A stretch of DNA of 64,000 bases from an uncultured Gemmatimonadales bacterium (GCA_963798915.1 CAWCVB010000017.1:1-64000), one strand, 5' to 3'; positions 28,740 to 32,857 are shown, counted from the first letter of the stretch. Notes: generated from the letters alone by a model not told the origin. A program made the numbers and translations.

Positions 28740-29714
28740 ATGGCGACACATCACGAAGCCCAGCCCATCGATACGGGCCCATATGCGCAGCGGACCTATC
28801 GGGACTCAGATCCCAATTTCGAAAATCTTGTCAGCAACTGGAGCCGCTACTCCGACCGGCTCATTCTATTCCTTGGCGCCGGAGCTTCAGTCGGAGCTCA
28901 GTCGGCTGGAGGTGCTTGGTTCCCTACCGCGGTTCAGCTTAGGGACTCAATATGGCGCGAATTCATGCTTCCGGTGGCGGATAAGGATTCATTTGACTAC
29001 CGCAATCTGGGGCTGATGACACTGGAGCATGCCGCAGCCCTGGCCGAAGCTCGTGCAGATCGTGCGAGCGTCATCGACTTCACTGCCCGTTTGTTCCGAG
29101 CACGATTCCCGCTCTGGCACCATTGCACGCTGCCATTTTTGCATCCCCGAGCAGTCCTGACAACGAATTACGACGACCTCATTGAGATGGGTTGGGCGGC
29201 CGTACGTGGGTCATACTCTGGTCTGCCCATTCATGCCGTCTACAACTCGAACACGGTGCTGCAGAGCGACTGGATACCCTTGTACAAACCACATGGATCG
29301 GCACCTCGGGCGGGAAGTGCGATAGGCGACGGGGGATTGGTCGTTACCCAGTTCGACTACTTTGAGATCCTCAACGATCGAGAATACTTGTTGGACAATT
29401 TCTTCACGAAATTCAACGAAAGCTGTGTGATATTTGTAGGTTACAATTTTCAGGACATGGATATCGCGTCATCGCTCTTTAATCTTCGTCTGAAGCACTC
29501 AGGCCCCCGGTGGTACGCCGTATTTCCCCGGGAAGATTCGGATGTCAGGAACATGTACCAGGAGCGCTATGGCATTAGAGTGATATCTCGGACCTTCCAC
29601 GATTTCATTGTTGAACTCGACGCTGCCGTTGACTTTCTGCCCCATGAATGGAAGCGAACCCAGCTATCCGAGCGAGTATCAGAACGCAGGATTGCGTCAG
29701 GGACAGTTGGATAG
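28740..29714 (+). CDS. Stand-alone SIR2-family protein (putative NADase effector)
   Basis: LFLGAGAS, VLTTNYDD, LYKPHGS, IFVGYNFQD; 324 aa with no recognisable additional domain. Confidence 0.88.
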   Translation: MATHHEAQPIDTGPYAQRTYRDSDPNFENLVSNWSRYSDRLILFLGAGASVGAQSAGGAWFPTAVQLRDSIWREFMLPVADKDSFDYRNLGLMTLEHAAALAEARADRASVIDFTARLFRARFPLWHHCTLPFLHPRAVLTTNYDDLIEMGWAAVRGSYSGLPIHAVYNSNTVLQSDWIPLYKPHGSAPRAGSAIGDGGLVVTQFDYFEILNDREYLLDNFFTKFNESCVIFVGYNFQDMDIASSLFNLRLKHSGPRWYAVFPREDSDVRNMYQERYGIRVISRTFHDFIVELDAAVDFLPHEWKRTQLSERVSERRIASGTVG

Positions 29715-30258
29715 TCGGATCCGGGTACTCGTGCTCTTGAGCGGTGGTTTGGACTCCGCGGCGACATTAGGACATTTTGCAACGCATAGAACGAATGTGT
29801 CTGCGCTGTTTATCGACTATGGTCAAGCCGCCCTTCCAGAGGAGCGCCGAGCAGCCGAACAGATCGCAAAACACTTTGACGCCGGGATCAAGTCAATTTC
29901 TATCCAAGGGCTAGTGCGCCGATCAGGGGCGATTTCTGGAAGGAATGCGGCATTCGCTTCCATTGCTCTGTGGGAATTGGGGCAAACGCGAGGTTTAATC
30001 GCAATGGGGATACGGAACACGGAACGTTATCCTGATTGTGGGCTCAGTTTTGTCGAAGGAATGAACTCGGTTGCTGACCTGTACACGGGAGGGTTGGTGA
30101 GGTTTTCCGCACCGCTCATGCACTTCACTAAGCAAGAAGTAATTGACTATGCTGCTCGCTTAGGCATCGGTCTTTCTAATGTACGTAGCTGTGACCGATC
30201 GGGCTCTAGCCCCTGCGGAGAATGCACTAGCTGTCGGGAGTACGCCGAATGCCATTAA
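29707..30258 (+). CDS. QueC-like PP-loop ATPase (type IV CBASS Cap9-like)
   Basis: LLSGGLDS, DYGQ, GRN, YPDC, PLMHFTK, C-x7-CGECTSC zinc site; in-frame TTG start overlapping the SIR2 stop. Confidence 0.9.
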   Translation: MDSRIRVLVLLSGGLDSAATLGHFATHRTNVSALFIDYGQAALPEERRAAEQIAKHFDAGIKSISIQGLVRRSGAISGRNAAFASIALWELGQTRGLIAMGIRNTERYPDCGLSFVEGMNSVADLYTGGLVRFSAPLMHFTKQEVIDYAARLGIGLSNVRSCDRSGSSPCGECTSCREYAECH

Positions 30259-31265
30259 GCCTCGATCAACCGCTTGGGTATGGGCGGACGCTCGTGCACC
30301 CTAGCGGGGTGTCCGTACAAACCCCGCTCCTGGTACCCTCGCTCTCGAGCAAAGGCTTTGGTACAAGCGAGTCAGGAGCATTGGAAGCGGGGACGCTTCT
30401 TGAAGTCGCACGAGAATTCGTAACGGACGCCATTTTGATCAGCGCGTACGATGTCGCACACGGGAAGGTGCCTCAAGTTGAGGAGCCATTCACCGAACTG
30501 CTCTTCCTGGACAGCGGAGGTTACGAAATTTCCGATGTGCAGGACCTCTCCGCTACCTACTTCGAACGAGGCGGAGAAGAGCCTTGGCCTCGAGAAAGTT
30601 ATCTAGAAGTACTGGAACGATGGCCTCAGCACGTTCCTTCTGTGTTCGTGAGTTACGACCATCCGGACGTGCGCATTTCTCTTGCCGAGCAAATCGCGGC
30701 CGCGCACCAAGACCTCGAGAGCTACAGAAGCCAATGGCGCTGCCTACTCGTCAAGCCAAGCACTAAGCGTCAGAAGTATGTTCAGCTAGACGAGGTCGAA
30801 GCGGCAGTTGAGGATTTGGTCGACTTCGACATCGTGGGCTTCACTGAAAAAGAGCTGGGAAATTCGCTACTGGACCGTATGACGAATCTCGCCCGTATCA
30901 AGGCGCGGCTTAACGAGGTATCCGAAAACGCCCCGCCCATCCACGTATTCGGGGCCTTGGATCCCCAAACAGTCGTTCTCCTCTATATGGCTGGAGCCGA
31001 GATATTCGATGGGCTGACCTGGCTACGTTACGGTTACGCCGACGGGGTAGCCATCGACTATCAAAATCACGGGGCGAGAGAATTCGGCGTCAGAGAGCGC
31101 GCAGACACGGTCAAGCTCAGGACGCTGACGGAGAACTATTATTACCTGAGGACTCTAGAGGACAAGCTGCGGAGGTTCCGACTCGACTTTGACTGGAGTC
31201 GGTGGGGTTCAGATGCCCAGTTCTTCAAAGACGCCTGGGAGACCTTGAGAGGAAGGATCGACTGA
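30249..31265 (+). CDS. TGT-like transglycosylase (type IV CBASS Cap10-like)
   Basis: VQTPLLVP, LFLDSGGYE, PIHVFG, GAEIFDGLTW; lacks the C-terminal CxCxxC zinc site of housekeeping TGT; overlaps the queC-like gene. Confidence 0.8.
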   Translation: MPLSLDQPLGYGRTLVHPSGVSVQTPLLVPSLSSKGFGTSESGALEAGTLLEVAREFVTDAILISAYDVAHGKVPQVEEPFTELLFLDSGGYEISDVQDLSATYFERGGEEPWPRESYLEVLERWPQHVPSVFVSYDHPDVRISLAEQIAAAHQDLESYRSQWRCLLVKPSTKRQKYVQLDEVEAAVEDLVDFDIVGFTEKELGNSLLDRMTNLARIKARLNEVSENAPPIHVFGALDPQTVVLLYMAGAEIFDGLTWLRYGYADGVAIDYQNHGAREFGVRERADTVKLRTLTENYYYLRTLEDKLRRFRLDFDWSRWGSDAQFFKDAWETLRGRID

Positions 31266-31266
31266 T

Positions 31267-32202
31267 ATGGGAGGCTCTGGCAGCGGCGGCAGCTATTTTA
31301 GCGGCGATGTACCCGATCTCCTAGGAAAGCTCCGGCAATCTGAAAGGACCTCTTCCTCGGCAGAGTACGACGTCGAAGTCAATTCGGTCTTAGGTGGCAT
31401 GCTCGCAGCGTACAACGATCGTGACCACGAGACGCTCAACAAACACTTAGATACGATCAAGAGCGCCTTGGAGGTAGACGTCGAGGGAACCCTCGACCTT
31501 ATGTACGGCGGCTCGATAGCCAAACACACCTACGTCGATGGGTTTAGCGACGTTGATTCCCTCGTGGTTCTAGACGAGAATACGCTTCAATCAAGATCGC
31601 CTGATGCCGCGAAGCAATACCTGGCCGAACGACTAAAGCAGCGATATCCAGAACATGAAATACGGGTGGGCCACCTCGCTGTAACCGTCCAGTTTGCGGG
31701 TTTCGACGTGCAGTTGATTCCCGCCATGAAGGCGGAAGGCCGGATGTGGGTTCCCAACGAGAACGGCAGCAGATGGGCTAAGATCGACCCTGCTGGATTC
31801 ACCCAAGCTCTCACCAACCGCAACAAGGAACACCAAGGCAAGATTATTCCCGCTGTCAAGCTTGCAAAAGGAATCGTGGCGGGCTACCCAGAGGCCATGC
31901 GTCCGACCGGCTATCACATGGAATCACTGGCTGTCGAGGCGTTCAAGGACTACAAAGGGCCATACACGCTGAAGAGCATGGTCTCTCACCTATTCCATCG
32001 TTCTTCGCACTTGGTTCGAGAACCAATCAAAGACCGGACGGGTCAGTCGATTCACGTCGATTCATATCTCGGAAACCCGGGAAGTGTGGACCGGCGGATC
32101 CTCAGTTCTGCCCTTGATAGGACTGCCAGGCGCATGCGGAACGCGGATAGGGCGGAGTCGGTCACCGAATGGGAGAAATTGCTCCAACGGCCGGAGAGAT
32201 GA
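31267..32202 (+). CDS. cGAS/DncV-like nucleotidyltransferase (CD-NTase, CBASS cyclase)
   Basis: YGGSIAKHTYVDGFSDVD (hGS-x-DhD), AVTVQF...VQLIPA, IIPAVKLAK, GYHMESLAVEAF; Gly-rich N-terminus MGGSGSGGSY. Confidence 0.9.
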   Translation: MGGSGSGGSYFSGDVPDLLGKLRQSERTSSSAEYDVEVNSVLGGMLAAYNDRDHETLNKHLDTIKSALEVDVEGTLDLMYGGSIAKHTYVDGFSDVDSLVVLDENTLQSRSPDAAKQYLAERLKQRYPEHEIRVGHLAVTVQFAGFDVQLIPAMKAEGRMWVPNENGSRWAKIDPAGFTQALTNRNKEHQGKIIPAVKLAKGIVAGYPEAMRPTGYHMESLAVEAFKDYKGPYTLKSMVSHLFHRSSHLVREPIKDRTGQSIHVDSYLGNPGSVDRRILSSALDRTARRMRNADRAESVTEWEKLLQRPER

Positions 32203-32857
32203 CGCTGCTCGACCAGAATCGGATACTCCAGCAATACTTTTTCGGCCCGCGACCATGTTATTGGCGCCGGCTACGATGAGGATATCGACGTAGCCTTGGC
32301 CGCCTCTCTTCGGCCCATCCAGGAGCCTTTTTTCCTTTCGAATCTCGCCTGGGTTGTTTTGGCTTCGGGGTTCTCCGAAGCAGTGCTGCGGCGCGTGTTC
32401 CCGAGCCTTAGCGCAGCCTTTATGCGATTCGAGTCGGGTCAGCGGATACACAGCAATCGGAAGGCATGCAGAGTCCAGGCCCTCGCAGTGTTTGGAAACG
32501 AGCGGAAAATTGACGCAGTCCTATGGGCGGCAAGGCACGTGACGCGCAAAGGTTTTGAATGCGGTGTTAAGTGATTTGGAGCGAGATCCCATAGAAAGCC
32601 TGCGGGGTTTCCCGATGATAGGTCCGATTACCAGCTTTCACTTGGCGAAGAACTTGGGCTACCCCGTGGCCAAGGCTGATCGGCACGTCCAACGATTGTC
32701 GGACGAATTGGGCTTCCGTGACGCACAGCAGCTCTGCCAGTACTTGTCGGAGTGGAGCGGTGAGCCCGTGCCCGTGGTCGATGTGGTGCTTTGGCGTTAC
32801 GCCACTTTAGCGCCCAATTACTTGACTCACTTCGGGTTCGAAGAAGCATCCAGATAA
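32199..32857 (+). CDS. HhH-family N-glycosylase/OGG-like protein (type IV CBASS Cap11-like; two frameshifts)
   Basis: ATGA overlap with the cyclase stop; LAWVVLASGFS; HhH LRGFPMIGPITSFHLAKNLGYPVAKADRHVQR; VDVVLWRY. Confidence 0.8.

Follow-up and report, generated by a model that had tools for sequence, protein, structure and literature searches.

A small stand-alone SIR2 protein encoded by an uncultured Gemmatimonadales bacterium is probably the nicotinamide adenine dinucleotide (NAD+)-depleting effector of a horizontally acquired type IV cyclic-oligonucleotide-based antiphage signaling system (CBASS). Its gene is the first of five which reside within a stretch of 64,000 nt (GCA_963798915.1 CAWCVB010000017.1:1-64000; the whole stretch is referred to as the window, and all positions are counted along it), and it is followed by the genes for Cap9, Cap10, the cGAS/DncV-like nucleotidyltransferase (CD-NTase) CdnD and Cap11 (Table 1). 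We favor this role for the SIR2 protein because an intact signaling core is present without any other killer, because the SIR2 gene is coupled to this core and was transferred along with it, because the arrangement recurs, and because relatives of the protein are located beside other nucleotide synthases.

A SIR2 gene coupled to a type IV CBASS core

The five genes are all encoded on the plus strand between positions 28740 and 32857, with no usable intergenic space. The TTG at position 29707 overlaps the end of the SIR2 gene, including its stop codon, by 8 nt and is the most likely start of Cap9, as the PADLOC QueC profile begins five residues downstream of it. Cap9 and Cap10 overlap by 10 nt, the ATG of CdnD is located 1 nt past the Cap10 stop, and the ATG at 32199, with which Cap11 opens, overlaps the stop codon of CdnD (ATGA). 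Downstream of Cap11, a gap of 63 nt precedes the ATG of hsdM at position 32921. Order, strand and junctions agree with the original prediction, which was made from the sequence alone and had described five co-oriented, coupled genes; the fifth of them, Cap11, turned out not to be one open frame. A consensus scan revealed no promoter-like or terminator-like sites on the plus strand inside the block, which lends weak support to transcription as one unit. The block is more AT-rich than its flanks, as had been noted before: the GC content is 0.53-0.57 across positions 29000-32999, compared to 0.70-0.74 upstream (25500-28499) and 0.63-0.69 downstream. Cap10 was not detected in the 40 related genomes searched (9 from the genus of the host, 15 others from its family and 16 others from its order), and CdnD is the sole SMODS match in the host genome, a metagenome-assembled genome (MAG) of 17 contigs and 3.3 Mb which is 84.8% complete. 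The low GC content, the lack of a Cap10 match in the relatives and the single SMODS match together point to a horizontally acquired cassette. It resides within a defense island, which also contains a WYL regulator, a type IV restriction enzyme, a type I restriction-modification (R-M) system and a second SIR2 gene of the PDC-S25 kind.

Based on the match to the solved Cap9, Cap10 and CdnD proteins of a Rhizobiales system (PDB 9NTN and 9NTO), with E-values from 1.3e-26 to 1.5e-74, the core in the window is assigned to type IV CBASS, in line with the original prediction. The order Cap9-Cap10-CdnD-...-Cap11 is the same in both systems, and SIR2, Cap9, Cap10 and CdnD of the window are full length when compared to their profiles and have kept their key residues. 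CdnD is recognized by the Pfam model SMODS (2.8e-14; 54 bits versus a cut-off of 26.5) and shows the strongest match to its Rhizobiales counterpart (1.5e-74). Within the GS...D95-x-D97 motif, D95 and D97 are invariant in 11 sequences and correspond in the alignment to the catalytic aspartates of the solved protein, which are one position lower in chain numbering; the catalytic mutants of the Rhizobiales protein given in the text of the corresponding preprint concern D94 and D96 (Wassarman et al., bioRxiv 10.1101/2025.04.06.647259). The glycine-rich N-terminus of CdnD, MGGSGSGGSYF, aligns to the GSGGSF of the solved protein, and M1, G5, G7 and G8 are conserved in the 11 CdnD sequences. Similarly, Cap9 aligns with its counterpart in 9NTO at the SGGLDS loop as well as at the Cys cluster of the C-terminus. 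The preprint text names six residues of the Rhizobiales Cap10 that hold the deazaguanine linked to CdnD, D73, S74, D122, K154, H226 and D248 (bioRxiv 10.1101/2025.04.06.647259). These align with D88, S89, D137, K169, H232 and D254 of Cap10 in the window, and all six are invariant among 35 homologs. According to the same text, defense by the Rhizobiales system requires Cap9 and Cap10 (bioRxiv 10.1101/2025.04.06.647259).

The window does not contain the effector which is most common among the type IV loci surveyed here. Scanning metagenome contigs with a Cap10 alignment, we kept 80 other type IV loci, and both CdnD and Cap11 were matched in 48 of them. The two genes are spaced by about 0.7-1.0 kb in 36 of the 48, and in all but two of these (34/36) the interval is occupied by a gene for a protein of 189-232 amino acids with two predicted transmembrane helices (2TM). 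The two others, L139 and L141, have the usual gap of about 0.7 kb, in which no open reading frame (ORF) of at least 80 amino acids was called; their 2TM effector may be broken or divergent. Two further loci outside the 48 carry a 2TM gene after CdnD and show no Cap11 match. All 36 2TM proteins (34 + 2) form one BLAST cluster, the representative of which matches the PADLOC model Effector 2TM PDLC00681 (7.3e-44). The commonest effector in the survey, carried by 36 of the 80 loci, is thus a 2TM protein encoded next to CdnD, while the window instead has a SIR2 gene upstream of Cap9. In the remaining 12 of the 48 loci, Cap11 directly follows CdnD, as it does in the window, and the effectors found there are located outside the core. 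They comprise a Cap17-like protein together with a Cap18-like exonuclease (L115, L145, L153 and L155, with a fragment in L124), a NUDIX-2TM effector (L150), a SLATT effector (L120) and, in L091, a SIR2 protein as the candidate effector; in two loci (L108 and L158) the contig edge is reached. The near-identical metagenome loci L101 and L102 have no recognizable effector on either side, with a transaldolase gene upstream and, downstream on the opposite strand, ORFs of 149, 403 (OST-HTH) and 180 amino acids.

No transmembrane, patatin, SAVED, STING or Cap17 gene was detected in the block by PADLOC, or by Pfam on the five proteins, and there is no room for one, which bears out what had been read from the sequence for the first four of these. 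SIR2 is the only gene of the five that is not assigned to a role in the CBASS core. PDLC00681 was unmatched in the 84.8%-complete host genome as well, in a search whose controls were also unmatched anywhere.

The arrangement of the window is found again in L091, where the order is SIR2, Cap9, Cap10, CdnD and an intact Cap11, and where the SIR2 and Cap9 ORFs also overlap. The two loci are deeply diverged: the SIR2 proteins are 54% identical, the highest value of the five, and the other proteins 37-48%. In L091 the five genes (3379-7598) form a block of 43-52% GC in a contig of 62-76% GC. The transferred unit extends from SIR2 to Cap11 in two hosts. There is probably a third instance, judged from two singleton sequences of one source: P0002, the best match to SIR2 (70%), and P0122, the best match to Cap10 (77%) among 1927 homologs, each stem from a contig of the same length, 4232 bp, which is the size of the five genes. 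In a tree of Cap10 and CdnD, the window and L091 are both placed at the unresolved base of one clade of 22 rows (Shimodaira-Hasegawa-like approximate likelihood ratio support 99), and the remaining members of this clade with a visible effector have the 2TM protein.

The SIR2 protein and its likeness to known systems

The 324-residue SIR2 protein belongs to a family for which we collected 232 homologs of 279-360 amino acids and 42-70% identity from many phyla. In an alignment of 42 family members, the NAD-binding glycine loop GAGAS at positions 46-50 as well as N143, D145 and H185 are invariant; we take the latter three to be the catalytic residues. The same alignment shows R68, H128, G198-G199, D206, W258, F262-P263-R264 and D294 as invariants that are specific to the family. 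The TTNYD motif of the window protein aligns with that of ThsA in the PDB profile matches, and the best PADLOC matches are the PDC-S25 and ThsA SIR2 models. Structural modeling by AlphaFold2 gave a single SIR2 fold at high model scores (pLDDT 93, pTM 0.91). Using Foldseek, about 295-300 columns of the model were aligned to the SIR2 domains of BcThsA, DSR2, EfAvs5 and KomC (E-values 2.9e-12 to 2e-10; query-normalized template modeling (TM) scores 0.59-0.65). This fold search spans the whole chain, and within it neither a trace of nor room for a SAVED, STING, SLOG or CARF domain was found. The claim that the protein is devoid of a recognizable cyclic-nucleotide sensor thus withstood the structure search.

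A search among longer proteins yielded 44 relatives of 675-1073 amino acids with 25-32% identity, all of which combine SIR2_2 with an nSTAND NTPase5 domain, most of them followed by tetratricopeptide repeats (TPR), and no fused relative closer than 32% identity was found. Because only these Avs5-like proteins were recovered, the family is, judged by this search, truly stand-alone. It is also rare; in 400 further Acidobacteriota genomes no member was detected besides the genome already known (0/400). A scan of viral contigs with the SIR2 alignment resulted in 25 pattern matches, with no relative among them.

Several known defense systems resemble the system of the window in parts. Thoeris ThsA (PDB 6LHX, 8BTO/8BTP and 7UXT) has a SIR2 domain of the same defense-type subfamily (profile E-values 1.5e-13 to 1.8e-10, Foldseek 2.9e-12), and this SIR2-SLOG protein is an NADase effector activated by a nucleotide signal, the same role that we propose here. 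Unlike ThsA, the SIR2 protein of the window has neither a SLOG sensor nor a TIR partner (ThsB), and the signal generator is a CD-NTase; membership in Thoeris was rejected, as none of the five proteins shows a TIR match. KomC of Kongming (264-278 amino acids; PDB 8ZSF, 9V0G and 9XVC) is likewise a small SIR2-only protein (target-normalized TM scores 0.68-0.77), at a sequence identity of only 18-20%. In the text of the Kongming report, KomC is described as a dITP-activated SIR2 protein within the KomBC complex and as the effector of a nucleotide-signaling defense, which needs KomB, a sensing subunit similar to purine NTP pyrophosphatases (PMC13454610). The operon in the window has no KomB-like gene, and membership in Kongming was rejected as well. 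The nearest longer relatives are the Avs5-like SIR2-STAND proteins (PDB 9JAP and 9NC9; best query-normalized TM score 0.65), in which a STAND NTPase and a TPR sensor are joined to SIR2 in one chain, while the SIR2 protein of the window stands alone. Overall, none of the sensors to which defense SIR2 domains are fused or with which they are partnered (SLOG, STAND-TPR, the C-terminal domain of DSR2, KomB or HerA) was found in the SIR2 protein or its operon. Among CBASS effectors, TIR-SAVED and TIR-STING (Cap12) proteins have the same predicted outcome, the depletion of NAD+ triggered by a cyclic nucleotide, and differ from the SIR2 protein both in the TIR fold and in the explicit SAVED or STING sensor.

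A SIR2 effector of CBASS has, so far, not been described in the literature accessible to searching, although supplementary operon tables may list one, and the same holds for the combination with type IV CBASS, as the original prediction had supposed. As far as its text goes, a review of 2023 lists only TIR-based NAD depletion for CBASS (PMC10419184), and the word 'Sir2' has no occurrence in the text of the type IV preprint, with Table S1 and the figures outside the scope of this count (bioRxiv 10.1101/2025.04.06.647259).

Genomic settings, competing explanations and a possible mechanism

Of the loci found by scanning genomes for the SIR2 protein, 12 are close (40-49% identity), and 67 (L013-L079) are distant and carry Avs5-like SIR2-STAND genes. 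In two of the close loci, L001 and L002 from Acidobacteriota, the SIR2 gene is located beside a type II CBASS operon (Table 1), and no effector candidate besides SIR2 was seen in either. A CapP-like peptidase is additionally encoded in L001, and a Crp-type regulator in L002; a PADLOC call of an 'Effector TIR' at L002:50-847 was rejected, as Pfam identifies this protein as the Crp-family regulator (cNMP_binding and HTH_Crp_2). In L003, a Verrucomicrobiaceae MAG, the SIR2 gene (6989-7888) is co-oriented with, and located 100 bp downstream of, a gene on the plus strand (5840-6889) whose product has a diadenylate-cyclase (DAC) domain (30.9 bits) and a DACNK sensor domain (29.7 bits, cut-off 27 for both). 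This pair may be an undescribed two-gene signaling defense module. These three loci, L091 and the window, i.e. those with a nucleotide synthase as neighbor, all fall into one half of the SIR2 tree, in which the cyclase-linked members form a polytomy. In the 67 distant loci, tBLASTn gave no match to the cyclases, E1-E2, MkoA/MkoB or the DAC protein. One of them, L036, has a QueC-like match (4194-4802; 31% identity over 204 amino acids) at a distance of 2.2 kb from its Avs5-like SIR2-STAND gene and may represent Qat or another deazaguanylation-type system.

The empty 2TM slot, the repeat of the five-gene order in L091 and the occurrence of the same family beside two type II CBASS operons and the DAC gene, along with the 8-nt overlap and the intact fold and catalytic residues, all argue for the SIR2 protein as the effector, which the original prediction had put forward as the likely one and which we also consider probable. 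Several observations weigh against this assignment. Among the other type IV loci, SIR2 is rare (1/80, L091), and none of the PADLOC CBASS Effector models matches the protein, which has no catalogued status as a CBASS effector. The window and L091 are not resolved as sisters in the SIR2 tree or in that of Cap10 and CdnD; their sisterhood was not rejected by the approximately unbiased test (p 0.49), the group having been named after the tree had been seen. In L001 and L002 the SIR2 gene is divergent from the cyclase and forms a separate transcription unit. Five of the 12 close loci (L007-L010 and L012) and a plasmid locus, L162, adjoin a Mokosh pair with SIR2 in divergent orientation; the pair in L007 scores 1.2e-246 for MkoA and 1.4e-85 for MkoB, and for the same-sized pair in L162 the annotation says no more than AAA-domain protein and hypothetical protein, so that here the label rests on annotation and gene sizes. 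One further member is located between AbiE and DRT9 (L011), and in 3/12 (L004-L006) no partner was recognized. The locus itself may also be decaying, as is discussed below. Finally, binding of a cyclic oligonucleotide by a SIR2 domain on its own is without a precedent known to us.

With regard to two of these settings, the Mokosh-linked proteins, which were found in alphaproteobacteria, might be an accessory or effector of Mokosh, or part of a conserved island. The ORFs upstream of SIR2 in L004 and L005 met with low recognition in the ESM Atlas (scores below 0.85) and are possibly not genes.

A further observation against the assignment is that Cap9, Cap10 and CdnD are present at none of the 12 close genome loci (0/12). 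Homologs independent of type IV CBASS had been named beforehand as an outcome that would refute the SIR2 protein as effector, and this outcome was literally observed in 12/12 loci. Since the effectors of CBASS are modules that can be swapped, we do not take it as a refutation; it does, however, keep alive the idea that the SIR2 protein is an autonomous defense or toxic module, which senses phage alone or with any neighbor and travels with CBASS genes. We regard this as unlikely. It would imply a CBASS core without an effector of its own. It would account for a whole clade (100/100 support) beside Mokosh without any cyclase, for the members next to AbiE and DRT9 or without a recognized partner, and for a protein devoid of a sensor domain. 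On the other hand, an unregulated SIR2 NADase would be toxic, and an autonomous module does not explain why the gene overlaps Cap9 by 8 nt, why, in two instances whose five proteins share only 37-54% identity, SIR2 opens and Cap11 closes a low-GC cassette, why no other effector is seen in the window, L091, L001 or L002, and why the members from these four loci and L003, within one half of the tree, adjoin nucleotide synthases. SIR2 enzymes use NAD+ as a source of ADP-ribose, which they transfer or release, and by virtue of this chemistry the protein could also assist the deazaguanylation pathway as an accessory enzyme instead of being the killer, for example by NAD+-dependent ADP-ribosylation of the free N9 of a CdnD-linked deazaguanine, or by modifying CdnD or Cap10. 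Such a role would fit the finding that, when the five proteins of the window are compared to those of L091, conservation is highest for SIR2. We nevertheless consider it highly improbable, as the family also occurs with type II CBASS, the DAC cyclase and Mokosh, where Cap9, Cap10 and deazaguanine are absent, as the system would be left without an effector, and as 79 of the 80 other type IV loci do without SIR2.

If the SIR2 protein is the effector, the following course of events might be hypothesized. By homology to the Rhizobiales system, Cap9 and Cap10 would act on the glycine-rich N-terminus of CdnD by deazaguanylation and would thereby prime or control the enzyme. Upon phage infection, CdnD would produce a nucleotide signal, which would switch on the SIR2 protein; NAD+ would then be hydrolyzed and the infected cell stopped, which is also the end result in Thoeris, DSR, Avs5 and Kongming. 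The least certain step is the perception of the signal, which might be bound by the SIR2 fold or an oligomer interface itself, with activation occurring via oligomerization. Direct binding would be the most economical solution because the protein has no separate sensor domain. Judged by the PDB titles, defense SIR2 proteins with solved structures act as an oligomer or filament. To our knowledge, each of them is activated through an extra domain or subunit, and all CBASS effectors studied to date have a recognizable nucleotide sensor or are membrane proteins. A one-domain SIR2 protein in the effector slot of type IV CBASS therefore poses the question of how a bare SIR2 fold might be gated by a nucleotide. 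Activation mediated by the TGT-like Cap10, which had been offered as an alternative in the original prediction, is unlikely, given that members of the family are also found in places devoid of Cap10.

Tentatively, and with rather more doubt than confidence, it might be speculated that the whole family of about 320 amino acids is a sensor-less, directly nucleotide-gated NADase, whose fold reads the cyclic nucleotide and polymerizes. If this is true, synthases of at least three kinds would use the family as a plug-in effector, namely the type IV CdnD, the CD-NTase of a type II CBASS and a cyclase with a DAC domain. Among CBASS effectors it would be the first without a SAVED, STING or Cap17-type sensor and without a membrane domain, and among SIR2 proteins the first to sense the ligand that activates it with no help from an accessory domain or subunit. 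If the SIR2 protein is the effector, type IV CBASS would gain a soluble enzymatic read-out, the loss of NAD+, and if it is gated by the CdnD product, an assay of this loss could aid in identifying the product. Two natural versions of the system exist, that of the window and that of L091 with its intact Cap11.

Cap11 and the state of the defense island

A separate question, whichever design applies, is whether the copy in the window is an inactive relic in a decaying defense island. We consider this possible, though less likely than not. The system in the window differs from the Rhizobiales type IV CBASS by its frameshifted Cap11. The OGG-like sequence is spread over three frames, and PADLOC OGG PDLC00910 matches it in two pieces, at 32296-32574 (profile positions 39-121, 1.5e-24) and at 32555-32857 (123-211, 1.4e-35). 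Using tblastn with four intact homologs (L091, L101, L115 and L153), the frame changes were placed at a run of five T (32238-32242) and a run of four T (32553-32556), each of which fits one extra base. The neighborhood of the cassette is affected in a similar way. Upstream, mREase_IV is split over at least two ORFs (Table 1), and by eye its N-terminal part extends into a probable third one (24684-26117), which itself has no family match; the gene is either frameshifted or mis-assembled. Downstream, the SIR2 gene of the PDC-S25 kind, which belongs to a different family and is located between hsdS and the hsdR fragments, is in two parts, which match profile positions 7-205 (4e-74) and 223-418 (3e-55) of 517 and have a GC content of 0.49-0.55. 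Within the type I R-M system, the match of hsdS is confined to profile positions 169-438 of 448, and hsdR is apparently fragmented, its sole matching piece being HSDR_N at 38175-38711.

These fragmented genes reflect either real decay or local assembly errors. The four genes from SIR2 to CdnD are full length with their key residues, which does not suggest a relic. As reported in the text of the preprint, deletion of Cap11 in the Rhizobiales system left defense unchanged and increased toxicity, and Cap11 is present in only about one in three systems of type IV (bioRxiv 10.1101/2025.04.06.647259). Moreover, both frame changes in Cap11 are located in T-runs of a MAG of 17 contigs and could be assembly errors. 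By our estimate there are about 7 frame changes in about 15 kb, a density at which their lack in the four intact genes (3.5 kb) carries no significance either way.

Table 1. Positions of the CBASS genes, neighboring island genes and related type II loci; positions without a locus name refer to the window.
Feature	Position	Strand	Remarks
Stand-alone SIR2, 324 aa; candidate NAD+-depleting effector	28740..29714	+	Pfam SIR2_2 PF13289, 5.5e-21; TAG stop 29712-29714
Cap9 (QueC-like)	29707..30258	+	PADLOC QueC 1.2e-48; PDB 9NTO Cap9 1.3e-26
Cap10 (TGT-like)	30249..31265	+	PADLOC TGT 4e-98; PDB 9NTN Cap10 4.6e-52
CdnD (CD-NTase), glycine-rich N-terminus	31267..32202	+	PADLOC Cyclase PDLC00790 6.5e-110
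Cap11 (OGG-like), in three frames	32199..32857	+	PADLOC OGG PDLC00910
Low-GC block	28700..32900	.	GC scan; limits are those of the five genes
mREase_IV	about 25000-28679	+	PADLOC PDLC03659; PLD, ResIII helicase and DUF3427; ORFs 25859-26701 and 26865-28679
Second SIR2, different family	36377-37006, 37042-37677	+	PADLOC candidate PDC-S25; split over two ORFs
Type I R-M system	32921-40828	+	hsdM intact, 682 aa
Type II CBASS, L001	L001:3568-7993		Cyclase, E1-E2 and JAB
Type II CBASS, L002	L002:1310-5768		Cyclase, E1-E2 and JAB

Elsewhere in the host genome, rpoB, dnaE and three class I tRNA synthetase genes are single open frames. A dnaE2-like gene (DNA_pol3_alpha; G000:C2:501522-502269) is split over two different frames, a possible frameshift outside the island.

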